From: a virus
IMG/VR virus record: IMGVR_UViG_3300030012_002828
Location: 1 to 64,000 of that record
Length of the DNA: 64,000 nt
Direction: 5' to 3' (one strand)
The notes under the pieces are model-generated. The model saw nothing but the letters and a program-made list of their open reading frames with translations. It was not told the origin of the DNA and made no database searches. Positions 1-45,627 of the stretch are shown here, piece after piece (positions within the stretch are counted from its first letter, which is position 1; each line of letters begins with the position of its first letter). A program made the translations under genes and the position numbers.

Positions 1-2613
1 AAATGGCAAAAAATGGATTTTGATGTTAGAACCAACAATAAATGGTATCTGGGTGGAACAATAGGTGATATTTTTAAATCAAATTTAAAGACAGGACTCA
101 GGCAAAGTATTAGGACAAGTAAAAAACCTTTACCTGAAAAAACAAGAGAGATTTGTAAACCTAAAGTTTTAAAATTAGGTGAATTTATAGACGATTATAA
201 AATAATAGTAAAGGAAAAAATTAAAAGATTTATCAAAGATAAAGATGTTAATGACCCACCTATTTACCGTTCTAATCACAGGTTTCCTGAACTTAGTGAT
301 ACAGTAGGAGAAATGTATTTCCGAGAAATGACAGGTTGGCATGACGGAATAATAACATATGTAGTTGGAGTTAAAGGTACTTATTCATTTAAATTTACTA
401 TAAAAGTTGTAGATTTAGAAAATGTAGAAGAATGGTCTGCTTGTAAAGCAATAGAATGTTGGAATGAAGCACCTGAAGATAGATGGAATGGGGTAAGTAA
501 ATATTTTGATAGTAAAACTAAGGCTGAGGGTGGCGATAAAAGTTTAGGAATTCGTGCAGGAAAAACTAATCCAAAAAGTCAGAATTTGGGCGGTTATTAT
601 ATTGTAGGAGAAGAAGTAAGAGGTCGTAGATGGGAAATAGAATTGAGTTGGGGATATGGTTTTGCAAATACAAATGAAACATATTTACAACAGGAAGAGC
701 ATGTTGCTGAACTTTTAAACATAATAAATACTGATAAAATGAAAAAAGAGTTTGATGCAATATTGGGTTCTCCTATTAAGAAAAGTCAGATTAGTATACC
801 TAAACAAAAAATAAAAACTAAAAGAAGGCCGCTTCCTGAGAAAACACCACCTGATTGTTATAAAATTATAGATGATATATTTCAAGCATGGGCTGATTGT
901 AATAAAGTACAAAGACCAAAAGTTTTACACGCAAGAGATAGTGGTACTCTTTCTCAATTCACAAATGAAGATTGGTGTGAAATGGTTAAGGATAGAAATA
1001 ATAATTTAATAATTCATCCTGCTAATCAAGATGACCCTGATTTATTTAGTGTTAGGTATTATATTTATTTAACCGATAAAAAAACTGATAATGTACAACT
1101 TTTTCTACATTGGGCTATGTCTAAAAGGTTTAATAAATGGAGAGTTTGGCAGTATGCAGAAATAGATTTTTTAGGTTATTCTTCACATATTATGGGTTCA
1201 GTAATGATAGATTGGGAAGAAGAACCTAATGTTTTTACTTCGGCTTATATTACAAAATTACTTGATACATGTAAAAACTGTCTAAATTTTGCTGATAAAT
1301 TAGAACAAATGAAACCCTTTGTTAATAAACTAAGACACGGTACTGGGGATTATAGTCAGGCACAAAGATTAATTTTTGATATGGCAGGGGATGGTGATAT
1401 ATCAAAGAATCAAATTACAGTACCAAAACAAAGCGTAAGAACGAGAAGATTACCCTTGCCTGAAAAATCGCAACCTGAAGATTGCTATCCTAAAATACAT
1501 AATATAGTCCAAGAATTTTTTAATGCGGGGAAACCGCTACATATACCTGTTCAAGCAATAAATGGTCGAGATAGTTTAAAACAAGGCGATTGGTGTACAC
1601 ATTATTATAATAAAAGTAAAATGAAAGCCCCCTATGCAGACCTTCAAGAAAGATTATTTAGAAAATTATCGTATGTTCCATTTTCTTTTGGGATAAAACT
1701 TGGTTCTCATTTATTATCTGTAAGTGTACGAGTTGAAGAACAATATTATAATAAAAAACTTGTATTAGTATATTTTGGATATTTACAAGATTATGGAGGT
1801 AATAGTAGGATGATACATAAATTTAATGACAGGCTCAGAAGAGATGTTTTTAGAGTAAATGAAAACACTACCTATTCAAATTGGCAGGATTTCTTTTTTA
1901 ACTTAAGAGAAATGGGTTACAGTATTAGAGATTGGGTAAGAAAAGTAAATAAAGATTTAAATGCAAACTACGATGTAAGTTTAGTCCACCAACAATATAA
2001 CGAATTAGAACAGGTAGTCAAAGATACACAATTGTATAAAGAATTTATGGATGATATAAAGAAAAATCAAATTACCATACCCAAACAAGGAATAAAAACA
2101 TCGAAAAGACCTTTACCTGAAAAAACAAAAAGAGAATGTATAGATGAGGTAGCAGGGTGGAAAAATAGTGCTTTTAGGAAAGCAGTATTACTTAAGAAAA
2201 TATTGATAGATGCTAATGTTGCTAATTCTTCTACTATTATTGATTTAAAATATGAAGATTTTAAAATAATAGATGGGGAATTAAAAGAATATTGTTGTTG
2301 TAAAATGATAGAGGCCATTAATCAAGTAGTATCAGGTGAGCAAAATTTTAAACAAAATGTAAGAACAGGTTCAACTATATCAAATTATCTTGATAAACAA
2401 TATCCATTTGAATTTAAAGGGGAAGAATATGTACTTGCTTGTCAATTTACAAGTGCTTCTATGAGAAAACAAAAAAGTATGATAGGTTTTGTTGCAACAT
2501 TATATGATAATTTTTATGAAGGTAGTATAAAAGATAAATATACATGCGACATAGTAGTAGAAAGTATGCTGGATAATTATGAAATTATACCTGCGGAAAT
2601 AAAATGGTGGTAA
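1..2613 (+). CDS. Polyprotein of four PLPEK-leader cassettes with unrelated variable domains; probably 5'-truncated by the window
   Basis: Frame is open from base 1 (AAA TGG CAA AAA ATG). Leader copies at ~67 (DIFKSNLKTGLRQSIRTSKKPLPEKT..C), ~772, ~1396 and ~2053. Confidence 0.8.
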   Translation, partial: KWQKMDFDVRTNNKWYLGGTIGDIFKSNLKTGLRQSIRTSKKPLPEKTREICKPKVLKLGEFIDDYKIIVKEKIKRFIKDKDVNDPPIYRSNHRFPELSDTVGEMYFREMTGWHDGIITYVVGVKGTYSFKFTIKVVDLENVEEWSACKAIECWNEAPEDRWNGVSKYFDSKTKAEGGDKSLGIRAGKTNPKSQNLGGYYIVGEEVRGRRWEIELSWGYGFANTNETYLQQEEHVAELLNIINTDKMKKEFDAILGSPIKKSQISIPKQKIKTKRRPLPEKTPPDCYKIIDDIFQAWADCNKVQRPKVLHARDSGTLSQFTNEDWCEMVKDRNNNLIIHPANQDDPDLFSVRYYIYLTDKKTDNVQLFLHWAMSKRFNKWRVWQYAEIDFLGYSSHIMGSVMIDWEEEPNVFTSAYITKLLDTCKNCLNFADKLEQMKPFVNKLRHGTGDYSQAQRLIFDMAGDGDISKNQITVPKQSVRTRRLPLPEKSQPEDCYPKIHNIVQEFFNAGKPLHIPVQAINGRDSLKQGDWCTHYYNKSKMKAPYADLQERLFRKLSYVPFSFGIKLGSHLLSVSVRVEEQYYNKKLVLVYFGYLQDYGGNSRMIHKFNDRLRRDVFRVNENTTYSNWQDFFFNLREMGYSIRDWVRKVNKDLNANYDVSLVHQQYNELEQVVKDTQLYKEFMDDIKKNQITIPKQGIKTSKRPLPEKTKRECIDEVAGWKNSAFRKAVLLKKILIDANVANSSTIIDLKYEDFKIIDGELKEYCCCKMIEAINQVVSGEQNFKQNVRTGSTISNYLDKQYPFEFKGEEYVLACQFTSASMRKQKSMIGFVATLYDNFYEGSIKDKYTCDIVVESMLDNYEIIPAEIKWW

Positions 2614-2614
2614 A

Positions 2615-3928
2615 ATGTGGGAAGATATAATTAAAAATCAAATTAGCATTGGAAGACAAAGTGTTAGAACAAGAAGAAGACCTTTACCTGAAAAATCTCC
2701 CCCTAAAGAATGTTGGCCTTTTTTTGAAAAACTAATTATAGATTTTGTCGAATTAAATAAAATCTATGACCCCGAAAGTACCTCGCTTATGCCTTCTACT
2801 TTAGAAAAGATTAGAGTTGAATTCCCTAATGAAGAATATTGGTGTGAATTTAAAGAAACTATGGAAGTATACATTGATGGTGACCTACCAAAAGGAAAAA
2901 ATGAAACTAATGCTACTTATATAACAATTTACGGGTATGTAAATGGTGGTAAAGAAAAGGTCATTTTAACTTTTCAATTTAGTTTAATTTTTGCTAATAG
3001 TCTTAGAAAAACTATTTGGACTATGAGTTGTAACTTTTTTTATCAGGCTGGTTTAATTCAAATTTATGATAAGGAAATAAATGCTTACGATTGGCAATAT
3101 AAAGAATTAGAGCGAATTGCAGGTATGTCAGGTATTAGATTTTTCTGTAAAGTATTTTACAGTTGGAAATCTGCTGTAACTGAATGGTTAAAAAGAATAG
3201 GAGTTGATAGTATAAAGTATTATGGTTGGCCTGAGTTTATAATAAATGATTGCGATAAACTTGTTGGGGATATTCAAAAATCTCAAATACAAACTGGAAG
3301 ACAGGAAATTAAAACTTCAAGGTTGCCCCTACCTGAAAAAACTAAAACAAACTGTAAAGAAACCGTACTTCAAATATTTTACGAATTTGATAAAATGAAT
3401 CAATGGATTTATGGAAGAAATCATACAGAAATATCCGATTGGTTTAAATCAAGCGAATACTATAAATTAACAGAAAAAGAGTATTGTCATTTTTTAGAAA
3501 CTGTTAGAATTATATATCAGCGAGCAGGTTCTGGTTTCGACCACCAAAACGAATTATTACAATTAATTGGATATTTTTCAGTAGGTATTCCTTTTATTAT
3601 CGAATATACTATACTACAAACTTCGAGTATAATAAATGGTGTTCCTACACATTGGGTTCCTGATTTTCAAATAGTATTAAATTCTACAACAAGAGGTCTA
3701 CGACCTTTAGAAAAGTGGATAGAAAATGACGATATGGGAGAAATGATTATGTATATAAATGAAATGGATGAAGAAAGATGGGAAGAATTTAAAGGTGGAT
3801 TAAAATTAATGTACCAAGAACGAATAAATAAAATAAAATCATTATGTAATAATCCAGAAGTATATATGGAAATAGAACCCACTTCTACTTTTCCAGAAAA
3901 TTTAAATCCTCCAATTAAATTTAAATAG
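2615..3928 (+). CDS. Two-cassette PLPEK-leader protein with N-terminal MWEDIIK tag
   Basis: Starts MWEDIIKNQISIGRQSVRTRRRPLPEK; second leader DIQKSQIQTGRQEIKTSRLPLPEK at ~3269. Confidence 0.85.
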   Translation: MWEDIIKNQISIGRQSVRTRRRPLPEKSPPKECWPFFEKLIIDFVELNKIYDPESTSLMPSTLEKIRVEFPNEEYWCEFKETMEVYIDGDLPKGKNETNATYITIYGYVNGGKEKVILTFQFSLIFANSLRKTIWTMSCNFFYQAGLIQIYDKEINAYDWQYKELERIAGMSGIRFFCKVFYSWKSAVTEWLKRIGVDSIKYYGWPEFIINDCDKLVGDIQKSQIQTGRQEIKTSRLPLPEKTKTNCKETVLQIFYEFDKMNQWIYGRNHTEISDWFKSSEYYKLTEKEYCHFLETVRIIYQRAGSGFDHQNELLQLIGYFSVGIPFIIEYTILQTSSIINGVPTHWVPDFQIVLNSTTRGLRPLEKWIENDDMGEMIMYINEMDEERWEEFKGGLKLMYQERINKIKSLCNNPEVYMEIEPTSTFPENLNPPIKFK

Positions 3929-3929
3929 T
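3920..3929 (+). promoter_or_regulatory. Possible archaeal TATA box (TTTAAATAGT)
   Basis: About 35 nt upstream of ATG 3961 and similar to TTTATATAGT at 30718. The AT-rich background weakens it. Confidence 0.3.
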
Positions 3930-3960
3930 CTTTCTATTTTAATTTCTTTTAGGGAATCTT

Positions 3961-4683
3961 ATGTCTTGGGAATCTTTGATAAAAGCAAGAGGCAATTCAC
4001 CAAGAAAATTGGATTTTGTTGAAAGGTATGGACTTGATACTGAAAATTTTTATTCAATACATCAAGTTTTGGCTAATATGAAACAAAGAAAAGGCGGATT
4101 TATGGCAGGTCAATTTAATACTGTACAATTAAGAGGCGTATTAGATAAATTAGTTAGACAAGGGAGGGCTGAAGGTAGACCAATAACAATAAAAAGACCA
4201 ACATCAGGTAATGCAAAAAGACCTTCAATGGAATATAGACAAATTGTTAAAGAAATATCTAAATCTGATTGGAGGGCAACGGTAGATAATCTTGTTACTA
4301 AAGATACACCTTTTGAGATAATATATGATAATATTAGACAGTCTATGAAATTTGATTCACCAAGTAGAGGTGATGTTTTAAAATATTTAAATGAAAATTA
4401 TGACCGACATAAACTTTGGTCTAATTTATGGAGTGTAAGAAAAATACTAAAGGCAAAGGTAAAAGCAGTTAGAAATAAAAGATATTATGACTATGTAAAA
4501 TTTATTAAAAAAATTCTAAAAGATGAAGGTGGTGCCGCAGGTATGAAGAATTTTATAGATGCCGGTAACAAAATAGATGGCTTTGATGAAAAATATTTAA
4601 AATATGTTATAGGTGATGCAATAGACCATGATGATTGGTTATCTGAACATGAACATGGAGATTATTATTTAACGGAGGATTAA
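3961..4683 (+). CDS. Tagged (MSWESLIK|A) multi-module protein, probably small helix-turn-helix-like DNA-binding units
   Basis: Three segments separated by EISK|S and KILK|A; the first has a wHTH-like pattern (LRGVLDKLVRQG). Confidence 0.6.
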   Translation: MSWESLIKARGNSPRKLDFVERYGLDTENFYSIHQVLANMKQRKGGFMAGQFNTVQLRGVLDKLVRQGRAEGRPITIKRPTSGNAKRPSMEYRQIVKEISKSDWRATVDNLVTKDTPFEIIYDNIRQSMKFDSPSRGDVLKYLNENYDRHKLWSNLWSVRKILKAKVKAVRNKRYYDYVKFIKKILKDEGGAAGMKNFIDAGNKIDGFDEKYLKYVIGDAIDHDDWLSEHEHGDYYLTED

Positions 4684-4685
4684 TT

Positions 4686-5006
4686 ATGTCTTGGGAAGAT
4701 ATTTTAAAAAGAAAAAAGAGCAAAACAAAAAAGCGCAAGCCTAAGAAAAAAGAGGATATGAGAGTAGGTCGAGTTTATCCTTCTGATAGAGCAGGTAAAA
4801 AAATTATGATGCTAACGCATGAAGGTAAAAAAATTCATGCGGGTGCTAAAGGGTATGGTAATTACAAAGGTAAAGGAAAAAATAGAGGCGGAGGAACACA
4901 CACTAACAAAAAGCGTAGGGCTAATTTTAAAGCAAGGCATAATTGCGACCAATGTAAAGGTAGAATTACAACTCCTAAATGTTTAGCGTGTAAAAAATTG
5001 TGGTGA
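4686..5006 (+). CDS. Tagged (MSWEDILK) small basic protein with Cys/His-rich C-terminus
   Basis: KKIHAGAKGYGNY..RRANFKARHNC..CLACKKLW; very Lys/Arg-rich; GGAGG RBS upstream. Confidence 0.8.
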   Translation: MSWEDILKRKKSKTKKRKPKKKEDMRVGRVYPSDRAGKKIMMLTHEGKKIHAGAKGYGNYKGKGKNRGGGTHTNKKRRANFKARHNCDQCKGRITTPKCLACKKLW

Positions 5007-5011
5007 TTATT

Positions 5012-5167
5012 ATGTGGGAAGATATATTAAAAAAGAAAAAAGATGCTTGTTATCATAAAGTAAGAAGTCGTTATAAAAAGTGGCCTTCTGCTTATGCTTC
5101 AGGTGCATTAGTACAATGTAGAAAAAAGGGTGCTAAAAATTGGGGCAATTCTAAGAAGAAGAAGTGA
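5012..5167 (+). CDS. Tagged 51-aa basic protein missing from the ORF track
   Basis: Hand translation MWEDILKKKKDACYHKVRSRYKKWPSAYASGALVQCRKKGAKNWGNSKKKK*; GGTGA RBS; fills the intergenic gap. Confidence 0.85.
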   Translation: MWEDILKKKKDACYHKVRSRYKKWPSAYASGALVQCRKKGAKNWGNSKKKK

Positions 5168-5171
5168 TATA

Positions 5172-6008
5172 ATGTGGCAACTTATTCTTAAGAAAGAATC
5201 TAAATGGGTTAATAATCTTTCTGAGAGTAAGCAAAAATTACTAAATACTAAACCTTCTTTTAATGTAAAATTTCCCGAACTTTCATTTCCCGATAATGAA
5301 AGTGAATTGTCTGAAGTTATGAATATAATGGAAAAATATGAAATGAGTAAAGATGTCGAAAAGGATTTAGACCAAAATAATAATAAAATGATGTTAGATA
5401 TTGTTGGAGAAAATGCAGTAGATTGGGCAGACTTCGTTAAAGATGTAGATATTTATACCATGCAATTAAAAATGAAATACAAAAGACCAAGACCCTATGA
5501 AGTTTCAGATAAAATTAAATCTATAACAGATACTGATGATACACCATCTTTTCCAAGCGGCCACGCTATTGAAGCATATGCTTTAGCAAAAGTCCTCGCA
5601 GAAGAACACCCTGAAAAGGAAGAAGAATTATTTAATATGGCTGAAGCAATTGCTTTATCGAGGGTATTAATGGGTAATCATTTTCCAAGTGATATAGAAG
5701 CAGGTGAAAAAATAGGATTATTAATTGCTGATGCTTATTTAGATACCGATGTTAAAAAATCATGGGAAGACCAATTATCTAAAGGTTGGGTTGATTGTTC
5801 TTCATGTGGTAAAGGGAAAAAGAGAAGACCTTGTGGTAGAAAGGATGCTTCTAAAGGGCAAAAAAGAAGATGCCGACCAACTTGTTCAGCCTGTAAAGAT
5901 TACAAAAGACGAGCAGGTAAAAGAGGAAAGAAAAAGAAAAGAAGAAAAGGCACTTTTAGTTTAGAAGATAAATATGGACTTCACGGTTGGTTCAAAAGGA
6001 GGGGTTGA
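5172..6008 (+). CDS. PAP2-family (acid phosphatase/haloperoxidase superfamily) phosphatase with tag and basic Cys-rich C-terminal module
   Basis: PAP2 motifs KMKYKRPRP, PSFPSGHA and SRVLMGNHFPSD. Start moved to ATG 5172 (MWQLILKK). Internal tag VKK|SWEDQLSK|G. Confidence 0.85.
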   Translation: MWQLILKKESKWVNNLSESKQKLLNTKPSFNVKFPELSFPDNESELSEVMNIMEKYEMSKDVEKDLDQNNNKMMLDIVGENAVDWADFVKDVDIYTMQLKMKYKRPRPYEVSDKIKSITDTDDTPSFPSGHAIEAYALAKVLAEEHPEKEEELFNMAEAIALSRVLMGNHFPSDIEAGEKIGLLIADAYLDTDVKKSWEDQLSKGWVDCSSCGKGKKRRPCGRKDASKGQKRRCRPTCSACKDYKRRAGKRGKKKKRRKGTFSLEDKYGLHGWFKRRG

Positions 6009-6465
6009 TATACCAATAAGAAAGGTGAAAGGCGGCTATAAATGGGGTAAGCGTGGTAAAGTCTATAAAAATCGTAAAGATGCTGAACGGCAAGCGGCTG
6101 CTGCATATGCTTCAGGATATAAAAAATCTGAAGATGTTATTACATGGAAAGATATTCTTAAAGCAAAAAGAATCCCAAGAAAGAAAGGGCAACCTGCTAA
6201 TTCTAAAAAACATTCAGATTTATACACAGATGAAAATCCAAAAGGAACAATACATGGTTTAGGATTTAAAACTGTAAAAGATGCAAAACGCTCAGTAGCA
6301 AAAATAAAAAGAAGTAGTAGAACCCATGCACATAAAACTCAAGCGGCTATCGCTATGGAACAAAGAGCAAGAGAAATGGGTAAAAAAACTGCGGCAGGTA
6401 TTTATAGGACTTTCATTAACGCACAAAAGAGAAAGACTAAAGCAAAAAGGAAGCGTAAAAAATGA
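5974..6465 (+). CDS. Two fused basic modules separated by an internal tag (TWKDILK|A); true start uncertain, possibly ATA 6010
   Basis: Modules PIRKVKGGYKWGKRGKVY..AAYASGY and KHSDLYTDENPKGTIHGLGFK..AMEQRA. Confidence 0.75.
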   Translation: MDFTVGSKGGVDIPIRKVKGGYKWGKRGKVYKNRKDAERQAAAAYASGYKKSEDVITWKDILKAKRIPRKKGQPANSKKHSDLYTDENPKGTIHGLGFKTVKDAKRSVAKIKRSSRTHAHKTQAAIAMEQRAREMGKKTAAGIYRTFINAQKRKTKAKRKRKK

Positions 6466-6587
6466 AAGAATTTACTTATTGTGGTCGCTGTTATGAAACT
6501 GACGATGTTTATCCTTTTGGGTTTTGTAGAAAATGTTGGATTAAACATGGCAAACCTAAAGCGATGAATGGTGATATAGTTGCCTAA
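6462..6587 (+). CDS. 41-aa CxxC-CxxC zinc-finger microprotein (not in ORF track)
   Basis: MKEFTYCGRCYETDDVYPFGFCRKCWIKHGKPKAMNGDIVA*; ATGA overlap with the upstream stop. Confidence 0.65.
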   Translation: MKEFTYCGRCYETDDVYPFGFCRKCWIKHGKPKAMNGDIVA

Positions 6588-6690
6588 TAAAAATAAAGTT
6601 AGAAAGCCAATAAAAAGAAAAAAGGGAGAACCAAGTCAAAAATCTGAAAAGAAAAGACCCAATAAACCAAACTACCCAAGAAAGAGATGA
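6580..6690 (+). CDS. 36-aa Lys/Pro-rich basic peptide (TTG start, not in ORF track)
   Basis: GGTGAT RBS, then TTG: MPNKNKVRKPIKRKKGEPSQKSEKKRPNKPNYPRKR*; fills the gap before 6695. Confidence 0.5.
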   Translation: MPNKNKVRKPIKRKKGEPSQKSEKKRPNKPNYPRKR

Positions 6691-6694
6691 TATT

Positions 6695-7579
6695 ATGCCA
6701 AAATTTTCACCTCGAAGAAATGAATTATTTCAAGTGTCAAGGTATGAATTACCAGATGGTTTAAAAAAACATATTGCTGTTGGTGTACAAAAAATAAAAA
6801 GCGATAGAGATACAAGTTATCCTAATAGTAATTGGGGTTCTGATGAACTAATGGTTATAGAAGGAAATAATCCAATGATACAACAGGGAGGCGGAGATTA
6901 TAGTATAACTTATATTTCTTTTTTTAAACTAAGAAAAGGAGGCGGAGTTTCAATTCCAGTATTAGATAAATTAAGTGTAGATAGAAGATTAACACAAGAT
7001 GCAAAAGGTCTGCTTAAATTTTTTGGATTAACTGATAGGTGGGCATTACCACCAGAAGATGATGAATCTAAATTAGCAGCAGGGCATTTTAGAGTTAATT
7101 TAGAAAGAAATGAAGTAATGGTACAATATGTTACAACATACAATTCATCGTTTATTGTTTTATATATAGGTTTTGAAAGTCCTTTAAAAATTTACGAAGG
7201 GTATAATATGTATAGTGACTTAACGGTTCGTGAATATATTGGTTTAAGATTGCTTTACAAGTCTTTTAAGAATCGCAGAAGAGAATGGAAATTATCAGAT
7301 GCTTGGCGACATTTTTTTAATGAATGGTCAAAAAGCGAAGTTACTGTTAAATTATTAGAAGGGAAGGGTTATTTACGATTTAAAAAAGAAGGTTTTCCAA
7401 GCATTACATCTAAAGGAAAAGCACATTTAGAAAATTTAATAGATAATGTAAATTTTGTTTCATTACAATTTAATGGCCGTGTTTCAGATATATTAAAAAT
7501 GGATTTAAATATAAATTGGAATGCTGAATTAGATAGTAAATTAATGGATGTATTGGAGGAATATTATGGATTGGACTGA
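6695..7579 (+). CDS. Hypothetical protein with possible C-terminal winged helix
   Basis: 294-aa ORF; LLEGKGYL..ITSKGKAHL resembles a wHTH wing. Confidence 0.6.
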   Translation: MPKFSPRRNELFQVSRYELPDGLKKHIAVGVQKIKSDRDTSYPNSNWGSDELMVIEGNNPMIQQGGGDYSITYISFFKLRKGGGVSIPVLDKLSVDRRLTQDAKGLLKFFGLTDRWALPPEDDESKLAAGHFRVNLERNEVMVQYVTTYNSSFIVLYIGFESPLKIYEGYNMYSDLTVREYIGLRLLYKSFKNRRREWKLSDAWRHFFNEWSKSEVTVKLLEGKGYLRFKKEGFPSITSKGKAHLENLIDNVNFVSLQFNGRVSDILKMDLNINWNAELDSKLMDVLEEYYGLD

Positions 7580-8342
7580 GAAATTACAAAAGAATCAAAT
7601 ACAAATTGGTCGTCAAAATGTAAAAACATCAAGATTACCATTACCTGAAAAAACACCTAAAAAAGATTGTAATGAAGAATTACTAAATATACATAAAAAA
7701 ATATCTGCTAAAATGAAAACATATGTACCTAAAATATTTGATGTATTTAACAATGCCCTTCTCCCCTCTTTAAAACATCAAGACGGTTCTATTGACAAAT
7801 TAAGACCTATTGTTTTATCCGACTCATTTCTTAAAAATAATTATTTAAAATATGAAGGTTCGGGGTATGAATACGGTGTTAAAGTAATATTAACACCAGA
7901 TAATCATATGAATAAACTTTCTGAACATTTAGGTCTTACTATGTATTGTCAGTTTATACCTTTTGAAGATGAAGAAATTGCTTGTAAAGTATTAGATTGG
8001 ATTAAAAATACAAAAGATGGCGTTATAGATTCAGATATATGGTTTGGAGATAATAGAAAATATCACGGTGCAATGGATTTGGATTATGAAAGAAGTGGAA
8101 TTGCAGATATACTTATTGGTATTGGCCCAAGAAGTAACGATGGTAGCGGTGCTTTTATTGTCTATCTAAGATTTAATGAATATGTTAATTTAGCATTTAG
8201 ACAGGTATATACTTTACTTTTAGGGGTTAAGGATGACCCCAAAAAAATTGCTGAAGATTGGTTAAATGATTTTCTTAGTGCTGTTAGTGATGCAGATATA
8301 AGGGCTATGGCAGAAGAATTAATAAATATAATTAGACAGTAA
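7566..8342 (+). CDS. Single-cassette PLPEK-leader protein
   Basis: GGAGG RBS, then MDWTEKLQKNQIQIGRQNVKTSRLPLPEKTPKKDC. Confidence 0.85.
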   Translation: MDWTEKLQKNQIQIGRQNVKTSRLPLPEKTPKKDCNEELLNIHKKISAKMKTYVPKIFDVFNNALLPSLKHQDGSIDKLRPIVLSDSFLKNNYLKYEGSGYEYGVKVILTPDNHMNKLSEHLGLTMYCQFIPFEDEEIACKVLDWIKNTKDGVIDSDIWFGDNRKYHGAMDLDYERSGIADILIGIGPRSNDGSGAFIVYLRFNEYVNLAFRQVYTLLLGVKDDPKKIAEDWLNDFLSAVSDADIRAMAEELINIIRQ

Positions 8343-10727: not shown

Positions 10728-12032
10728 ATGAGTAAGTTTGAAGGCACAGATTTTGATAATGTAGACCAATATTTTGATATTGGTGCAATTAAAGGAGATT
10801 ATGATGCTTGGAAAACAAAATGGAATAAAGGTTCTGAGTGGGGAATTGTAGGGGGTAAAGATGGTAATAAACCTAAAACTGTTTTAGAAACAGTATTAAA
10901 TCATGGTGACCCTACCTTTGCCCGTGACCAAGCAAGAAGTATTGAAGGTTTAGGTGCTTTATTAGAAGCATTAACAGAAATACTTGATGGCGATACAATT
11001 GAAACAGAACATAAACTACAATTACAAGAAGCAATAGATGGTATGGAAGAAACTTTAACAAGAGATAAAGGTAAATGGAATCCAAGAAATATACCTTTTA
11101 ATACTGTTGTAGAATTTAACGAAACTGATGACCCTAAAGCACCTGATATAGTAAGAGATACAGTTTATGGGCATTACAGAACAAAAGCATATAATGATTA
11201 TGTAGAATGGGCTAATGAAAATAAACCCAATAAAAATTTAAAGGTTGCTAAACACGAAGATGAATGGACTAATAAATCACAAGGTAAAGCAAGACCTCCA
11301 CTTTGGCAAGCAATTACAGGCGTGGGAGAAACTAATGAAGGAAAAGGCGGTATTTTATTTATTGCAAAAAAAGCATTAAAAGGTGTAGATAAAATTAAAA
11401 TGGGTGATGGTAATAGAATTGCTATCTTTAATAATTCAAAAGGGCCAATTCAATTAGCGCAAATAAAAAGTGTTCAAGAAAAAGTTATAGAAGTTTTACA
11501 AAATCCTAATATTTATCCCGCAGGGAAATCAAGAGCACCTATGAAAGATAGATTAAATGCTGCTTTTACTAATGAAAGTTATGCTATAAGAAATGAAGAA
11601 GAAGCCCGATTACTTAATTTTGCTAAAGGGTATGATAGGGTTGAAGGTGTTGAAAAATTAAAAACTGTTAAACTAAGATTTCCAAAAAATAATCTTGCTC
11701 TAAATAAAACCATTGTACAGGTTCTAAAAGTTTTAGGACAAGAAATGAAAAATTATCAAACTCCAAAGGCTAAAGATGGAACAGCAAAACCCGGATTAGT
11801 TTTGAAAGAAAAAAGAGAAAATAAATTTAAAGGAGAAATTACAATGAGTTGGAAAAATGTATTAAAACAAAAAAAATTAAGCCCTAAGCAAAAGAAAATT
11901 GCTGAAGCGGCTGAACCTAAACATAAAATTACAGGTGCAGATTTTAAAGCATTAGCCGAAGAAGATAAAAAAACTGTTACTCGAAAAGATAATAGAAAAA
12001 AAGGAAGAGGCGCATTTACAGATAGGGATTGA
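10728..12032 (+). CDS. Hypothetical protein with an in-frame tagged C-terminal module starting at 11844
   Basis: ATG 10728; internal AGGAG RBS plus MSWKNVLKQKKLSPKQKKIAEAAEPKHKITGADFKAL. Confidence 0.75.
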   Translation: MSKFEGTDFDNVDQYFDIGAIKGDYDAWKTKWNKGSEWGIVGGKDGNKPKTVLETVLNHGDPTFARDQARSIEGLGALLEALTEILDGDTIETEHKLQLQEAIDGMEETLTRDKGKWNPRNIPFNTVVEFNETDDPKAPDIVRDTVYGHYRTKAYNDYVEWANENKPNKNLKVAKHEDEWTNKSQGKARPPLWQAITGVGETNEGKGGILFIAKKALKGVDKIKMGDGNRIAIFNNSKGPIQLAQIKSVQEKVIEVLQNPNIYPAGKSRAPMKDRLNAAFTNESYAIRNEEEARLLNFAKGYDRVEGVEKLKTVKLRFPKNNLALNKTIVQVLKVLGQEMKNYQTPKAKDGTAKPGLVLKEKRENKFKGEITMSWKNVLKQKKLSPKQKKIAEAAEPKHKITGADFKALAEEDKKTVTRKDNRKKGRGAFTDRD

Positions 12033-15069: not shown

Positions 15070-17403
15070 ATGAATTGGAAACTAATTCTAAAAGAAGATA
15101 GTACACCTAATATAATTAGCGCAGGTGCTATCAAAACAAAATTTAGTAAAGGTAACTTACCTTCTAAAAAAGAAATAGATGAGATAGTAGAGGTACATGG
15201 ACAAGTCCAAATAAAAAATATTGATACAGCCCTTACACAATTAAAATCTGCATACAATAAAATTGCTCAAGGTGAAGATGCACCTAATAGTATTATTAAT
15301 AGAATGATAGAAGGTAGATTTAGTAAAGTAGGTAAAGATAGAGAAGATAGTCTTAGAATTGTAGGAGAAAGATTAAAAGAATTGCAGGCTCTTAAAGGAA
15401 CAGATGAAAACCCCCTAATAAATAAAACAATAGGAGGAATAACATTTGGGGAGTTAGTTTCACCCGATGATAAAACAAATCAAGAGTGGACTATTGAAAC
15501 TCTTAATGCTTTATATCAAAAAATGATAACAGAACCATCCGTTGAATTGTTGTACGCATTACATTATTTTATTAATACTTCAACCGATGGTAATTGGTCA
15601 AGAGCAGGAGGTTGGGTTAATAGAATGGGCAAAGATTCAATAGAAAATCCTGACACACAATTTTTAAAGAATGTTTTTGATTTAAGAGGTAAGCGTGATG
15701 TTAAAGGTAATATTGATAAAAAGGTTTTTGAGTTCTTTAATAAAGGTAATAAATTTAAATACACGACAGAAGGTATGAGAAATATTACTGTTAAAAGAGG
15801 TAAGGGTAAGTTTGTAACAAGAGAAGGTAAAGAGATTTCTCCAAGTAGAAAATACGAACAAGAAGGTGGCTTTAGAGAAGTAACAAGAGAAGTAGGAGAT
15901 TCACGAAATATTGTAATGGGTGAAAGAAAGTCTATGCAATATTTGATTACTGATGATTTAGTAAATAAAATCAAATCATTAACAGAACAACAATTTATAG
16001 AATTGGTTAATAATTTAAATAAAACAAATTCTTCAATAGATTTTATATCTTCATTAAAAGGTACTACTACTGAAATAGTCTATATGTTATTAAGTAGAGA
16101 TATGGGTATAAATGCTTTAGTTAGAAATATAGATGTTGCGAGAAAGGGTATGAGTCCTTCTTCACGAAGAAAGGATTATCTACATGATTGGGCTGTTAAG
16201 GAAGTTAATAAAAGAATGAAAAATGCAAATGATTCAGATGGAGAAGACTTTGAATTATTTAATATAGTATTACCTTCGCAAACTAAAGCAGAAGAAATTA
16301 TAGAAAATAAAGGGGATAGTTACGACGAATTTAGAAGAAATAAATCTAAGATGATAGATAATTTAAAAGGTAAAGTTAGAGGTGGGGATGAAACTTGGAA
16401 CAAATCTTTTGAAACATGGCTTAAATCAAGAAGAAGATTAGAAGATTCTTATCAAGGGGGCGATTCTAAAACTTTAGACCCATCGCAGAACCCTGTTAAT
16501 GTTGAAGGTGCTATGAATATAAATTATTCTTTTAAGACTTCAAACCAAATAAATGATTTTATAGAAAATTTAGGTGGCGATACTGTTTTCCGTTCACATA
16601 TACTTTCAAGAAATTTATTAGCATTATTTTTTGATTATTATATTGATTTTGGCCCAGAAGAAGGTAGAGATAAAGGTGAAAGACTTAGAACATTGGGCGA
16701 CTTTAAAGGCTATTTGCCTTCAGGTAGAATTTTTGCTGATTCAACGGAAACTACATTTTTTGACTCTATGAGAGCATTACTTACAGTAATAAAGAAAGTT
16801 TTAACAAATTCTGCATTAAGAAACTATAATCAAAATATTAACATGTCATTAGAAAAATTCTTTGAAGGTATAGATGAATTATTTAAAAAAGAGGGTGGAG
16901 AAATAGATTTACAGCCCGATGACGATGAAAATAGAAAGGAAATATTTAGCGATATAGATGCTATGGATTCTATTGATGATAATTTAAAATCATCATGGTT
17001 TGGTACAAAGGCATATATGTTAAATATAGAAGATGAATTATCCTTTGCTATGATGGATTTAAAAGAAGCAGTTGCAGAAAAAATTGCGGAAAATATTATT
17101 TTGATTGCTGAAGATACTACCGATAAATACAGACCTTCAGGAATAAAAATAGGTGGTAGGTCAAAAGGTATAAGAGATTACCTTGCGTTAAAGAAATTTA
17201 TAATACCACCTAAACCACCTAAACAAATCAAAGTTAATAAAACAACATACAAGTTAGACGAATCTATGTTTGATGAAACAGATTTAGATGCACAACTAAA
17301 ATATTATGCCTTTGAGAAAGAATATGACTTTTCTGAAGAACCATCTTTAAATATGGATAAGGTCAAGACACTAACACTAAGAGAGGCTATTGAGGGGTTT
17401 TAA
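15070..17403 (+). CDS. Large tagged (MNWKLILK) hypothetical protein, candidate internal virion protein
   Basis: 777-aa ORF with no motif I recognise beyond the tag. Confidence 0.7.
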   Translation: MNWKLILKEDSTPNIISAGAIKTKFSKGNLPSKKEIDEIVEVHGQVQIKNIDTALTQLKSAYNKIAQGEDAPNSIINRMIEGRFSKVGKDREDSLRIVGERLKELQALKGTDENPLINKTIGGITFGELVSPDDKTNQEWTIETLNALYQKMITEPSVELLYALHYFINTSTDGNWSRAGGWVNRMGKDSIENPDTQFLKNVFDLRGKRDVKGNIDKKVFEFFNKGNKFKYTTEGMRNITVKRGKGKFVTREGKEISPSRKYEQEGGFREVTREVGDSRNIVMGERKSMQYLITDDLVNKIKSLTEQQFIELVNNLNKTNSSIDFISSLKGTTTEIVYMLLSRDMGINALVRNIDVARKGMSPSSRRKDYLHDWAVKEVNKRMKNANDSDGEDFELFNIVLPSQTKAEEIIENKGDSYDEFRRNKSKMIDNLKGKVRGGDETWNKSFETWLKSRRRLEDSYQGGDSKTLDPSQNPVNVEGAMNINYSFKTSNQINDFIENLGGDTVFRSHILSRNLLALFFDYYIDFGPEEGRDKGERLRTLGDFKGYLPSGRIFADSTETTFFDSMRALLTVIKKVLTNSALRNYNQNINMSLEKFFEGIDELFKKEGGEIDLQPDDDENRKEIFSDIDAMDSIDDNLKSSWFGTKAYMLNIEDELSFAMMDLKEAVAEKIAENIILIAEDTTDKYRPSGIKIGGRSKGIRDYLALKKFIIPPKPPKQIKVNKTTYKLDESMFDETDLDAQLKYYAFEKEYDFSEEPSLNMDKVKTLTLREAIEGF

Positions 17404-30749: not shown

Positions 30750-32033
30750 ATGAGTTCTCTTAAGGTTAAACCTATGAGATTAGGTAATCATTATTCAAGT
30801 GGTTCTGAATTTGCCGTACTAAAAGGTACAGGGAAAGATTTAGTTATCGCTGGTTATGCATCTGTTGATGTAGTAGACAAACAAAATGATTTAATTACAT
30901 TGGAAGCATTAAATGATGCGGCTGATAAATTTATGAAGAGTGATTATAAAAATGTAATGATTACTCATTCAAATGTACAAGTAGGAGAAGTAATTGATTC
31001 TTATACAGATACAAAAGGTAACTTGTTAAAAACAGGTTGCGACGATACAGGATTCTTTGTAGTTATAAAAATGAGGAACGATATTGAAAAAGCGAAAGAA
31101 GTAGCAAGAGATATTAAGAGAGGCAAACTTCGTTCATTTAGTATCGGTGGACAGGCTATTAATAAGCATAATGTTCACGACCCCGATATAGGAACATACA
31201 AAGAAATAGATAAATTAGAACTCCATGAGATTACAATTTGTGAAGAAGGAATAAACCCTGAAGCCAAATTTGAAATTGTGAAGGAAAACAAAAATAAAGG
31301 AAGTGAAAAAATGACCGACGAAATTAGTAAAGCATTAAGCGAGTTTGAAGACATTGTAGGCCAACTAAGAAATCAAATTGACAACTCAGTAGTTAAGGAA
31401 GATTTTGATGATGAGCAATCTATGGCAGAACCCGAAATGATGAGTGAAGAAGAAATGATGCCCGAAAAAGTAGATGATGAAGAAGATTTGTCATATAAGG
31501 CTGAATCAGTTGATGATGAAGAAGATATGGATGAAACAAAAGAAAAGAAAGCAGCAGATTCTATTGTTTATGGGCACAATGCAACAGGACAAAAAATGGG
31601 CGAAAGTAATCTAACAGGAAGATTTGATTCTGAATTTAGTGAATTTATTGCTCGTAAATCAGCAACACTTGATACACTTGACCTAAGTGAAGAAAATGTA
31701 GCAAAGGCATATGCACAATTTAAGGCTGAACAAGAAGAAGCAAGAGCATATGATTTGATTAAGAATGAATTTGAAGCAAGATACAATGCTGAACTAAAGA
31801 TGGAAGCAGACATGATTGCTAAAGAAAACTATGACGCAAGTGCTGAAGTTGCTGCTCTAAAAAATGAGTTTGCACAACTTCGCAAATCTCTTGAATCAAA
31901 TAATGAAGTAATTGCAAAGCAAGTTACTCAAGCAACCTCAAGACTATCTGATGATGTAATTTCAAAGATGGACAATATTGGTGAAATGTCTTGGGAAGAA
32001 ATTAATGACCTTGTTAATGAGGTACAAGGCTAA
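30750..32033 (+). CDS. HK97-type prohead protease fused to an acidic scaffolding domain
   Basis: IAGYAS..VDKQND, catalytic-type H (THSNVQVG) and S (SFSIGG), LHEITI..NPEA; acidic coiled C-terminal half. Confidence 0.93.
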   Translation: MSSLKVKPMRLGNHYSSGSEFAVLKGTGKDLVIAGYASVDVVDKQNDLITLEALNDAADKFMKSDYKNVMITHSNVQVGEVIDSYTDTKGNLLKTGCDDTGFFVVIKMRNDIEKAKEVARDIKRGKLRSFSIGGQAINKHNVHDPDIGTYKEIDKLELHEITICEEGINPEAKFEIVKENKNKGSEKMTDEISKALSEFEDIVGQLRNQIDNSVVKEDFDDEQSMAEPEMMSEEEMMPEKVDDEEDLSYKAESVDDEEDMDETKEKKAADSIVYGHNATGQKMGESNLTGRFDSEFSEFIARKSATLDTLDLSEENVAKAYAQFKAEQEEARAYDLIKNEFEARYNAELKMEADMIAKENYDASAEVAALKNEFAQLRKSLESNNEVIAKQVTQATSRLSDDVISKMDNIGEMSWEEINDLVNEVQG

Positions 32034-32068
32034 TCCTAATAAGGATTAAAAAAAAGGAAGTGAAAAAT

Positions 32069-33370
32069 ATGAGTTTAAAAATTAGAACAATAGCAGATTT
32101 AGAAAGAGCAACATACGGTTCTTTTGGTGGAAACAGTCTTATTAAGGCAAGTACAGGACAAACAGGTGGAGTAGGAGTTACAAGAGGTATTCATTCGGAT
32201 TCTAACTCAGGTGCTTTTAGCCCTAATGCTCTATACAATTTGGTTTATGGTCAAAAAGTTTGGTCTATGCTAAACCGTGAAATTAATGCATTCGCTATGC
32301 TACCTAAAAAGCCATATCAGTCAAGCGGCTGGAGAGTCATGATTGAAAGAGCAATTGGTGGTCAAGGTGATATTCTTAATATTGCAGGTGGAACAAATCA
32401 AGGTTCTCTAACAGAAGATTTGATTGGTGGTGTTGAAGAAAACGCTTCATTTACTACTAATGATGCAACAGCATTTGCCCCAATTGCACCAAAGTATGAA
32501 ACACTTTATGTTTCTCCTAAAACAATAGCACATCAATTTGAAGTTTCTGAATTGGCTGCTGCTATGGCAAAGATTGATGATGGAATTGGTGATATTATGG
32601 CCGCTTATAGAGAAGAAGTTGGTGTAACCCACGCTGAAATGATGAATCATATGCTTCTAACTCCATTGGAATCTAAGACTAATGGTTCAGGTACTTATGT
32701 AGGTGCAAATAATATTAAATCTCTTTATGAAATTGTAACAAGTAAGGCAGAATTGGAAGCGGCTGATGGTGGAAATCTATTTGCAGGTGCGCTACCAACA
32801 GAAATGAAGACTCTATATGGAAAAGATAGAACAAATGCTGCTAATAATACTTGGATGGATGCTTTTGTAGATTCTTCTGCTGATGCAACAACAAGAAGAC
32901 CACTAACTCTTAACTTGCTAAATACTGCTCTAAGAGAATTGCAAATTCGTGGTGCTTCACCAAAGGTTATTCTAACAGGATATGATACAATTCAAGCATT
33001 GGGAGAACTTCTACAATCTCAAGAAAGATTCATGGGAAGAACCGAAGTACTACCAACAGTAAATGGTATTAAAGGTGTAAAGGGTAGAGAAGTTGGATTT
33101 AAGGTTGCTACTTATCATGACATTCCTATTATTCCTTGTAAGGAAATGGGAAGCACAGGAACAGGTGCTGGATTGAGTGATATTTTCATTCTTGATACTG
33201 ACCATTTGCACTTTGCTACTTTGAAGCCAACAGAATATTTTGAAACCGGTATTGATTCGGGTGACCCATTTTCAGTAAATGGTCTACGAAACAAGGGTAT
33301 GTATCGTACCATTGGTGAAGTTGTTTGTACATATTTGAAAGCACAAGGAAAGATTACTAACCTATCTTGA
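32069..33370 (+). CDS. Major capsid protein (HK97 fold)
   Basis: Follows the protease; motifs SGWRV, PKTIAHQFEVS, VATYHDIPII, IFILDTDHL and QGKITNL typical of archaeal tailed-virus MCPs. Confidence 0.9.
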   Translation: MSLKIRTIADLERATYGSFGGNSLIKASTGQTGGVGVTRGIHSDSNSGAFSPNALYNLVYGQKVWSMLNREINAFAMLPKKPYQSSGWRVMIERAIGGQGDILNIAGGTNQGSLTEDLIGGVEENASFTTNDATAFAPIAPKYETLYVSPKTIAHQFEVSELAAAMAKIDDGIGDIMAAYREEVGVTHAEMMNHMLLTPLESKTNGSGTYVGANNIKSLYEIVTSKAELEAADGGNLFAGALPTEMKTLYGKDRTNAANNTWMDAFVDSSADATTRRPLTLNLLNTALRELQIRGASPKVILTGYDTIQALGELLQSQERFMGRTEVLPTVNGIKGVKGREVGFKVATYHDIPIIPCKEMGSTGTGAGLSDIFILDTDHLHFATLKPTEYFETGIDSGDPFSVNGLRNKGMYRTIGEVVCTYLKAQGKITNLS

Positions 33371-42451: not shown

Positions 42452-42645
42452 GAACAGGCAAAATAGATAATCCAAGAATAGCACACGCATTAACATATTA
42501 TACTTTATCTAAAGAATTAAATATAACTCCTGATGTTGCTATGAATTTACCTATGAGTATAATTACTGACCTTTTAATGGTACACGGAGAAATTGAACAA
42601 TTAAAAATGGATGAATTAAATAAACATAAAGGTGGTCTAAAGTAA
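42424..42645 (+). CDS. -1 frameshift extension of the tail chaperone (gpGT-like)
   Basis: T TTA AAA at 42424-42430. The -1 frame is open for 73 codons (..KSEFRRAVRTGKIDNPRIAHALTYYTLSKELNITPDVAMNLP..) to a TAA overlapping the TMP ATG. Confidence 0.8.
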   Translation, partial: FKSEFRRAVRTGKIDNPRIAHALTYYTLSKELNITPDVAMNLPMSIITDLLMVHGEIEQLKMDELNKHKGGLK

Positions 42646-44606
42646 TGGCAGAAAGGTATGTTAAGGTTACAGAAGATATGGCTTCTAACCTTGACAAAGT
42701 TTCACAGTCATTAAAAGATATTGGTAAATTAGAAACATCCGTACTTCAAGGCTTTGTTGAAATAACTAAAAGTAGTACAGCAACAGGACAAGCGTGGACA
42801 GGTATTGCTCGTTTCTTTTCAGGTACAGGATTTTGGCAGGTACAAAATAAAGTAAAAGCAATTGCTAATCTCTTACAATTTCAACAAAAACTTACAGAAA
42901 AAAAGATACAGCAAGAAGAAGAACTAACTTCTCAAGTTGCAAAAACTGATAAAAATCTTCAAACTGTATTAGAAACACAAACAGCACTTCAGGGTATTTT
43001 AGATAGAACAACATCTTTAGAAGATAGAAAAGCAATATTAAATTCTAAATATTTTAAAGTATTACAGAAAAGATACGGAACAAGACAGGCAGTTTTTAAA
43101 TTATTAGAAAGAACAAATAAAGCAGAAAAAAAGGCTAAAGAATTTAATGATGCTTTGAATAAAGGTAAAGCAAAAGAAATTAGAAGTCAGTTTAGAAAAT
43201 TAGAACTGATGGAAGATGAAATAGGTTATTTAAATTCAAGAAGTGTTTTAAGTAAAGAAGAAGAAGAAAGAAGAGATAACTTAGTAAAATTAGTAAAGGA
43301 TTATAATTCAGGTCTTGTACTTTCAAAAGATAATATAATACAAATGAATAACGAACAATTAACTTTGGCTTCACAAATGCAAGATTACCAACAGGAATAT
43401 TTTATAGCAAATGATAGGTATAGAGAATTGGTAGCCTCGATTGCTTCAGAAACAGATGAAAAAGAAAAAGAAAGATTATTAAAAGTTAAAAAAGAATTAG
43501 ATGAAGAAAAGCAAAGAATACGAAAAGAGCAAAAAGACTTAGAAGATAAGTTGGGTGCAGAAGGAATTACAGTAAATAAAATAGGAAAAGATGTAAAAGG
43601 TTTTGATTCATCAGGTGCTAAAAAACCAAAAGGTATGTTAGGATATTTAGAAAAAATGGCTGAAGGTACAGTAATAGAAAAATTATTTAACGCTTGGCAT
43701 AAAAAACATTTGATAACATTATTTTTGTGGAGAAAGAAAAATAGTTTTTTAAGTTTGTTTAGAAATCCCGCACGATTAGGAAGGCAAATAGGAATGTTTT
43801 TAGGAAAAGCAATTACTTTCTTTATATCCTTTATGGTAATAGGTTTTCTTTTAATAGCATTTTTAGTAACACTAAAAAGTTTAGGAATTTTTGATTATAT
43901 AGTTTTTATAGCCAAAGAAATATTTAGAATAGGAAAAGTAGTAATGAGTGTTTTAGGAAAGGTATTTGCTGTATTTGCTGTATTTATTACAGACTTAGTT
44001 CAATTTATTTCTGATTTATTTTCATCTGATGGTAATTTTGTAAAATCTGGTGGGAAATTAATTATGTCGGGATTGGCAGTAGTCGGAACTATTCTTATGG
44101 GTGTTTTAGAAATTCTTGGGGCTACAATTTGGTCATTATTAAAACTTACATTTGGTATTTTCTATGCAGGTTTTAAAGAACAAGGAGGCAAATTTGTTCT
44201 TAAATTAATTGGATTTGGTTTAGTATTATTTGGTATGTGGAAAGTTACATCATTTTTAATTGCGGCCGCAACTTCAAACGGATTTGTTATAGCAATAGGT
44301 ATATTATTAGCAGGTATTATGAGTTTATTTTCTAATATTCCGGGAATGGCTGAGGGAGGAATTGCAACAGGCGGTTTAACAATGGTGGGAGAAAAAGGCC
44401 CAGAATTAGTTAATTTGCCAAGTGGTTCAAGAGTTTATAGTAACCAAGAATCAAGAGGAATTGCGGGTACAACAAATAATATTACTGTAAATGTACAAGG
44501 TAGAGTAGGTGCATCAGACGCAGAATTAAGAGATATAGCAAATAAGGTTGGAAGGCTTATATCATTAGAAGTTAATAGAACAACATCATCGGGTACAAGG
44601 ATTTGA
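42645..44606 (+). CDS. Tape measure protein
   Basis: Coiled-coil N-half, hydrophobic helices, C-terminal MAEGG..VGEKGPELV motif. Confidence 0.88.
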   Translation: MAERYVKVTEDMASNLDKVSQSLKDIGKLETSVLQGFVEITKSSTATGQAWTGIARFFSGTGFWQVQNKVKAIANLLQFQQKLTEKKIQQEEELTSQVAKTDKNLQTVLETQTALQGILDRTTSLEDRKAILNSKYFKVLQKRYGTRQAVFKLLERTNKAEKKAKEFNDALNKGKAKEIRSQFRKLELMEDEIGYLNSRSVLSKEEEERRDNLVKLVKDYNSGLVLSKDNIIQMNNEQLTLASQMQDYQQEYFIANDRYRELVASIASETDEKEKERLLKVKKELDEEKQRIRKEQKDLEDKLGAEGITVNKIGKDVKGFDSSGAKKPKGMLGYLEKMAEGTVIEKLFNAWHKKHLITLFLWRKKNSFLSLFRNPARLGRQIGMFLGKAITFFISFMVIGFLLIAFLVTLKSLGIFDYIVFIAKEIFRIGKVVMSVLGKVFAVFAVFITDLVQFISDLFSSDGNFVKSGGKLIMSGLAVVGTILMGVLEILGATIWSLLKLTFGIFYAGFKEQGGKFVLKLIGFGLVLFGMWKVTSFLIAAATSNGFVIAIGILLAGIMSLFSNIPGMAEGGIATGGLTMVGEKGPELVNLPSGSRVYSNQESRGIAGTTNNITVNVQGRVGASDAELRDIANKVGRLISLEVNRTTSSGTRI

Positions 44607-44610
44607 TATT

Positions 44611-45621: not shown

Positions 45622-45627
45622 TAATAT

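Follow-up and report, generated by a model that had tools for sequence, protein, structure and literature searches.

The window analyzed here, which comprises the first 64 kb (64,000 nucleotides) of the single 93,843-bp contig IMGVR_UViG_3300030012_002828 from IMG/VR, opens with an array of protein units (cassettes) that each consist of a conserved leader and a variable domain, the payload. The contig has a G+C content of ~30%, and its ends share a 101-bp repeat with 1 mismatch (window 1-101 versus genome 93743-93843, corresponding to L002:9900-10000), so that the assembly is either circular (~93.7 kb) or terminally redundant. Its gene set includes a large terminase, a portal, an S78 prohead protease-scaffold and an SU10/HK97-type capsid protein, with a DNA ligase gene embedded within the structural block. 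A ligase within the structural module is a magrovirus trait (PMC5434244). The nearest portals in the phage collection are those of the haloarchaeal tailed viruses HCTV-5 and HVTV-1 (~30% identity) and of a Methanomassiliicoccales virus. The virus is an oceanic, magrovirus-type archaeal tailed virus.

Each leader spans ~32 residues and has two parts: a start tag, M-x-W-x-D-I-L-K (the W-tag), that is kept only in units that begin a polypeptide, and an extension specific to the cassette family that is found in every unit, N-Q-I-x-I-x-K/R-Q-x-I-K/R-T-x-K/R-x-P-L-P-E-K, followed by 3-5 residues and a cysteine (Cys1). Internal units have lost the Trp and Leu of the tag and fully retain the extension. 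There are eight units in total, in a 5 + 2 + 1 layout: U0-U1-U2-U3-U4 in a protein of 1088 residues, U5-U6 in a protein of 437 residues, and U7 alone (Table 1). The open reading frame that is already open at window base 1 starts at genome 93089 (L002:9246) with the W-tagged unit U0 (MWEDVLKNQ...), making the first gene a continuous 1088-codon reading frame across the contig junction, preceded by a 170-bp intergenic region. The same protein is present in the public collection as P0003, and an identical copy lies on a Tara Oceans scaffold (L111).

An earlier reading of the sequence (hereafter the original prediction) had described seven leader-led units of ~190-260 residues. All seven lie where it placed them, and U0, which begins outside the window, makes eight; measured sizes are 189-258 residues. 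Its leader positions agree with the in-frame PLPEK motifs and unit starts listed in Table 1, the marks being those of the D-I-x-K residues, ~9 nt further in. The second-cysteine motifs that it listed are all present, and gene-initial units do carry the W-tag (MWEDIIK, MDWTEKLQK), while fused units retain only D/G-I-x-K-S/N.

Table 1. Features of the cassette array and of its candidate partners (window coordinates).
Feature	Position	Strand	Leader	PLPEK	Second-Cys motif	Remarks
U0, C-terminal end	1..57	+				unit and gene begin outside the window (circular overlap, continuous reading frame, P0003)
U1, 236 residues	58..765	+	58-156	127	WSAC	most divergent leader copy; late-second-Cys class
U2, 207 residues	766..1386	+	766-858	829	EDWC	
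U3, 219 residues	1387..2043	+	1387-1485	1453	GDWC	closest paralog is U0
U4, 189 residues + stop	2044..2613	+	2044-2139	2110	EYCC	C-terminal I-K-W-W
U5, 215 residues	2615..3259	+	2615-2713	2681	EYWC	W-tagged start of the second gene
U6, 222 residues + stop	3260..3928	+	3260-3355	3326	EYC	internal leader
U7, 258 residues	7566..8342	+	7566-7670	7638	EIAC	single-unit gene; W-tag MDWTEKLQK
15-nt DNA core of the PLPEK codons, CCTTTACCTGAAAAA	127..141, 2110-2124, 2681-2695	+				exact matches
Prohead serine protease (S78) + acidic linker + coiled-coil scaffold, one fused gene	30750..32033	+				candidate packaging/processing partner, from context
Capsid protein	32060-33370					candidate site near 32138-32149

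Leader conservation is strong at the level of the peptide. Residues K7, Q15, T19, L24, P25, E26, K27 and C32 are invariant in an alignment of the eight units, and K7, Q15, P25, C33 and the second cysteine (C77) remain so across 30 members (the 8 units and 22 single-unit relatives). Leader DNA identity averages 68% and the invariant residues use differing synonymous codons, which indicates that conservation acts on the peptide and not on the DNA; selection on the leader at the DNA or RNA level was rejected on the same grounds. The DNA core that the original prediction had reported is exact at the three positions that it gave and recurs with 1-2 mismatches at 1453, 3326 and 7638. The window holds 10 matches to it where 0.5 would be expected, a number reached in none of 100 shuffles. 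Two leaders of one genome share 15 nt exactly and up to 28 nt at 75-89% identity. AlphaFold2 models of the two-unit U5-U6 protein (9-row alignment, mean predicted local distance difference test score, pLDDT, of 62.6) and of U7 (7 rows, pLDDT 71.8, predicted template modeling score 0.70) predict disorder in all three leader copies modeled, with pLDDT below 50 at residues 1-24 and 217-243 of the former and 1-23 of the latter; being predicted disordered, internal leaders are probably accessible. Two other candidate functions were discarded: a lipoprotein or secretion signal, as a hydrophobic stretch before the cysteine is absent, and a translation start inside the chain for each unit, as the surroundings of the U6 leader contain neither a Met nor a start codon.

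Behind the leader, the whole family has in common a helix after Cys1 and an acidic-aromatic-cysteine motif around the second cysteine (Cys2). Beyond these, the payloads have no detectable mutual sequence similarity: pairwise BLAST among them matches only U0 with U3 and U0 with U2, over ~40 residues, and a profile comparison restricted to payloads aligns a 19-column Cys2 motif (E 0.028). Payloads had been described as divergent, which they strongly are; in sharing the helix and the Cys2 motif they are not wholly unrelated. In the structure models, U5 and U6 share the order of elements after Cys1, with 2-4 helices, a five-stranded antiparallel sheet and a long C-terminal helix, and the second cysteine sits on the last of the helices before the sheet. 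The U7 model, and U1 by alignment, has extra strands inserted before the second-Cys helix. The units are best read as a lineage-specific, rapidly diversifying family of small alpha/beta domains. In several chains, the terminal unit ends in a hydrophobic residue followed by x-W-W(-K), as in I-K-W-W, V-M-W-W-N-K and V-E-W-W-K (window 2599-2613, L003 ~10990-11009, and proteins P0016, P0032 and P0037), which may be a conserved C-terminal signal.

Searches for known relatives of the units came back empty. Pfam and PHROG scans of all units and their neighbors gave zero matches for the units, a tblastn search of the two-unit protein against 50,697 phage records gave none, and a profile search of PDB sequences gave 0 matches at E up to 1. 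The sole ESM Atlas model is that of U7, with a pLDDT of 0.34 that is too poor for use. Fold searches with both AlphaFold2 models returned nothing significant: the two-unit model reaches best Foldseek E values of 6.5e-3 (PDB) and 2.6e-3 (BFVD) and U7 one of 3.2e-2 (PDB), and the best VIA scores, Z 5.2 (an NTF2-like protein, root-mean-square deviation 4.2 over 108 residues) and Z 4.6, are at noise level by the standards of that tool. The family is also rare, as a profile of the eight units finds 38 clusters among 1.84 billion representative proteins, nearly all of which start with a W-tag and a leader variant; locus searches with single proteins, which require exact 8-mers, found no relatives. 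The alignments and the profile search thereby bear out the view of the array as a paralog family with a constant leader and a variable payload. The leader motifs are absent from the literature searched, and the original magrovirus paper makes no mention of such a family.

How the array changes can be read from related viruses, for which we compared G003 (L003, IMG/VR, 95,975 bp), G001 (94,364 bp), L112 (Ga0181420_1000889) and the contigs L093-L095. The order here is U0-U1-U2-U3-U4 and then U5-U6. In G003 it is U2-(U3/U0 hybrid)-U1-U4 and then U5-U6, and in L112 it is ...U0-U1-U4 followed by a second gene of three units, U5-U5'-U6. G001 has a similar backbone and a different set at the same locus, a two-unit protein and two others that carry an internal leader of the form G-G-K-T-K-R-K-K-K-P-L-P-D-F-E-P. 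The more distant L093-L095 have 5-6 units as separate, slightly overlapping genes that are each W-tagged, in addition to a stable two-unit fusion. Orthologs remain recognizable, U1 being 41% identical to its counterpart in G003 and 60% to that in L112, and U2 and U4 each 72% identical to theirs in G003, where the U2 ortholog is the first unit of its gene.

Two junctions were tested for where the partner switches, and in both it does so inside the leader. The first unit of G003 has at least 90% DNA identity to the promoter region, gene start and W-tag found here and then, ~25-90 nt into the coding sequence and inside the leader, becomes 80-100% identical to U2. At its last junction, G003 follows the U1-U2 junction found here (I-L-G-S-P-I-K-K-S-Q) and switches within the leader to U4 (77-100% identity). 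Because both breakpoints map inside them, leaders do host crossovers and act as recombination anchors. The comparison shows that recombination inside leaders has duplicated, removed and re-ordered units among relatives, and has joined or separated them. The original prediction of diversification by shuffling is thus upheld by the differing number and order of units among three related genomes and by the two leader breakpoints, and a cassette order fixed across relatives was not found. Its proposal that the DNA core is the anchor agrees with crossovers inside leaders and is limited by the shortness of the exactly shared DNA (~15 nt, at the mean identity given above).

The payloads also change faster than the rest of the genome. 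Protein identity to G003 is 27-72% for the cassettes versus 85-97% for terminase, portal, protease and capsid protein. We estimated the ratio of nonsynonymous to synonymous substitution rates (dN/dS) between the two genomes by the pairwise Nei-Gojobori method, and as several dS values are near saturation, these are to be read qualitatively. Backbone genes give 0.05 (terminase), 0.07 (portal), 0.11 (protease) and 0.23 (capsid protein), cassette payloads 0.32-0.80, the fiber-like gene at 42645 gives 0.74, and leaders, most of which lie lower than payloads, give 0.13-0.53 in five of six pairs. Payloads evolve about as fast as the tail-fiber-like gene and well above the backbone. Synonymous divergence itself is uneven: the U2 and U4 payloads, at 0.23, lie below the backbone (~0.5), and U1, U5, U6 and U7 lie above it (0.8-1.1), which suggests that single cassettes have separate histories. 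The tail-fiber-like genes (42645-54395, including a 2562-residue protein) are only 26-31% identical to both relatives, and together with the cassette loci they are the most variable parts of the genome.

Within each genome, the leaders share a flavor of their own. The residue after PLPEK is Ser or Thr in all eight units here, encoded by AGT, TCG, TCT, ACA and ACT, and Asp or Glu in all seven units of G003; from there up to the cysteine, residues are acidic in G003 and neutral to basic here. Other genomes have further flavors common to all their units, KRKKKPLPDFEP or RQKLR..PLPDDD. The units are old paralogs with one-to-one orthologs, and seven ortholog pairs have shifted in the same direction using different codons. 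Such a concerted shift in differing codons is most simply explained if a single trans-acting factor reads all leaders of a genome and exerts selection on them. Recent gene conversion was rejected as the cause of the likeness, again because the codons differ.

The W-tag is not confined to the array. At least 11 other genes in the region from 2.6 to 15.1 kb begin with it as well, and starts matching M-x(0-2)-W-x-x-[ILV]-[ILV]-K number at least 11 here, 16 in G001 and 8 in G003, compared with 0 in a shuffled control of 80 loci; 5 of the 80 loci fetched around a conserved basic protein carry W-tags. The cassette genes open a long same-strand block that holds all W-tagged genes, followed by the terminase, portal, S78 protease-scaffold and capsid protein. 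Among the other W-tagged products are a PAP2 phosphatase and small, Cys-rich proteins that are extremely basic and Zn-ribbon-like. A protein with a KWPSAYASG motif and the PAP2 protein are encoded by two genes here (5012-6008) and by one in G003 (L003 14481-15494) and G001 (L004 2687-3742), and the split-off downstream gene has gained a W-tag-like start, MWQLILKK. Similarly, a basic protein of 163 residues (5974-6465) has an internal I-T-W-K-D-I-L-K at 6145 that is the N-terminus of a separate gene in G001 (L004 3708-4801); further internal W-tags lie at 5763 (in the PAP2 tail) and at 10553. As an internal tag here is a gene start in G001, fusion and fission at W-tags are general in this block.

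Some further tagged proteins were seen in passing. A 777-residue protein (15070-17403, W-tag MNWKLILK) is 36% identical to its counterpart in G001 and 75% to that in G003. In relatives (L003 16181-17797, L004 5339-6478, L085 429-1499), a basic P-L-P-E/D motif with linker, Cys and helix lies midway along W-tagged proteins whose N-terminal domain is a different one; there is no counterpart here between 6465 and 6695. The viral contig L097 (6061-9196) has four tandem genes starting W-x-S-I-I-K-N-Q-I-A-S-T-K-G-K-T-F-Q-L-D-F, which resemble the array in the W-tag and in the N-Q-I with which the leader begins, and have another continuation in place of P-L-P-E-K.

What might these proteins do? The best explanation, which we hold tentatively and at somewhat under an even chance, is by analogy that they are variable cargo, packaged in the virus head and possibly ejected from it. 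The leader would serve as a common handle for a single partner encoded by the virus, with the protease-scaffold or the interior of the capsid as the likeliest reader, and the array proteins would be loaded into the procapsid together with the other W-tagged proteins of the cluster. A tag that occurs once per polypeptide, beside a protease-scaffold gene, can be likened to the capsid-targeting sequence of phage T4. The head would then carry a mixture of variable domains, delivered into the host together with the DNA as the internal proteins of T4 are.

Cleavage between units, which the original prediction had placed after the Lys, is a weaker sub-claim, possible and on balance doubtful. Disordered internal leaders may be cut by the S78 prohead protease, whose separate gene at 30750 is the only protease found; Pfam and PHROG scans of both polyproteins for an embedded peptidase found none. 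About 27 residues into the capsid protein lies N-S-L-I-K|A, conserved in G001 and G003 (N-N-L-L-K|A in the latter). This sequence is similar to the I-L-K with which the W-tag closes, and maturation may involve a Lys-specific cut there. Unit junctions have leaders that are conserved and predicted to be disordered, with a P2 residue unlike that of the N-terminal tags.

Several points weigh against this explanation. Presence in the virion, cleavage and ejection are all things that we infer by analogy, and for an anti-defense or takeover role there is analogy and nothing more. At P2, internal leaders carry a polar residue (I-K-K, I-S-K, I-Q-K) versus the Leu or Ile of D-I-L-K and S-L-I-K, which does not favor recognition in the same manner, so that the same protease site may be absent. 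The 25 conserved residues exceed the needs of a cleavage linker. A high dN/dS could stem from relaxed constraint just as from an arms race, with dS near saturation in several pairs, and the structure models are of moderate confidence, built from shallow alignments.

The length of the conserved extension, retained in every unit far above what a cleavage site needs, could instead mean that the chains are never cut and form beads-on-a-string virion proteins, internal or decorating, in which the leader is a flexible tether that binds a repeated site (the capsid lattice, the scaffold or DNA). The missing hydrophobic P2 in internal leaders and the two-unit fusion that is stable in three related contigs agree with this. 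Units of the same family are, however, separate W-tagged genes in other lineages, so physical linkage is not required, and some genomes have basic leaders and others strongly acidic ones, which speaks against simple DNA binding. We consider uncut chains unlikely.

Similarly low is the probability that we give to an intracellular role in takeover or counter-defense, outside the virion, with the leader as a linear motif that docks onto one hub and the payload selecting targets; a host factor would be one possible hub, and the enzymes for ubiquitin-like tagging that the virus itself encodes would be another. A disordered, peptide-conserved motif that co-varies within a genome is typical of docking motifs, the leader has an invariant Lys and Gln, and the payloads evolve fast. 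Such a role sits less well with genes that head a block co-oriented with the structural genes, or with an N-terminal tag common to very basic proteins that look DNA-condensing.

Many phage receptor-binding proteins combine a constant anchor with a variable tip, and the array could by the same token encode host-recognition modules, in which a constant N-terminal anchor plugs variable binding domains into the tail or head surface. Divergence and dN/dS do resemble those of the fiber-like gene at 42645, but the array lies ~30 kb from the tail and fiber genes, its tag is common to basic proteins and a phosphatase that are unlikely tail parts, and the anchor is predicted to be disordered instead of a folded adaptor, all of which makes this quite improbable. 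Autoproteolysis at the invariant, domain-starting Cys via an N-S acyl shift, as in inteins and Ntn hydrolases, would suit the position of that residue exactly at the boundary between disordered leader and folded domain in every unit, but is very improbable, as the family alignment has no other invariant residue of catalytic type (no His, Asn, Asp or Thr), sequence searches gave neither a Hint nor an Ntn match, and fold searches gave nothing significant.

To return to packaged cargo, its most far-reaching version is a recombining cocktail of effector domains, packed in the head of an archaeal virus as leader-tagged polyproteins, in which the leader is at once packaging handle, release site and recombination anchor and co-evolves with a viral reader. 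We regard this version as rather unlikely; if true, it would amount to modular effector shuffling in a virus placed among the most abundant archaeal viruses of the surface ocean. To our knowledge, no magrovirus has been cultured, and the papers searched yielded no proteomic data. The array makes one mode of change readable from sequences, the exchange of cassettes at a constant leader. Should the leader prove to signal packaging and release, no earlier cargo-loading system would have been described for an archaeal tailed virus, and foreign proteins could be brought into such capsids with a tag that is ready to use. Since the leaders of a genome change in concert, the partner could be sought by co-variation or pull-down. 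Magroviruses are, by published estimates of abundance, the likely dominant group in the archaeal virome of surface ocean waters (PMC5434244).

Three known systems invite comparison. In T4, internal proteins that are divergent and poorly conserved reach the scaffold core by means of a capsid-targeting sequence, which the prohead protease then removes; one of them, IPI, blocks a host restriction enzyme (PMC9026906). As in T4 (IPI, IPII, IPIII and Alt), a short N-terminal tag is found here on otherwise unrelated proteins near head genes, and related viruses differ strongly in the proteins that carry it. Pfam and PHROG scans and the tblastn search of the phage records reveal no sequence relationship to the T4 proteins, however, and the setting is an archaeal virus with an HK97/S78-type protease in place of T4 gp21. 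The leader is three times longer and has a second conserved part, and paralogs are chained in tandem with recombination inside leaders.

Polyvalent proteins (Iyer, Burroughs, Anand, de Souza and Aravind 2017) hold 2-15 different known conflict domains per polypeptide, are believed to be head-packaged and to be delivered along with the DNA, in some cases undergo proteolytic processing, and show extensive mosaicism (PMC5512222). The array resembles them in joining several modules in one polypeptide and in its mosaicism. It differs in that polyvalent proteins join known enzymatic or binding domains and often carry a peptidase (e.g. MPTase), whereas the modules here are paralogs without a known domain that all have the same leader.

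The organization fits that of polymorphic toxin and effector loci, as the original prediction had proposed, in that a constant part precedes variable cassettes and recombination occurs at the constant part. The likeness stops there: Pfam and PHROG scans of units and neighbors found no toxin, immunity gene, or trafficking or secretion-system domain, the neighbors being W-tagged proteins, and in place of silent downstream cassettes, all units lie in expressed reading frames. Tagged polymorphic head cargo is thus already known from T4, and polyvalent packaged proteins from phages; new are the long two-part leader, the tandem chains of paralogs, recombination located in the leader, the concerted change of leaders, and the archaeal-virus setting.

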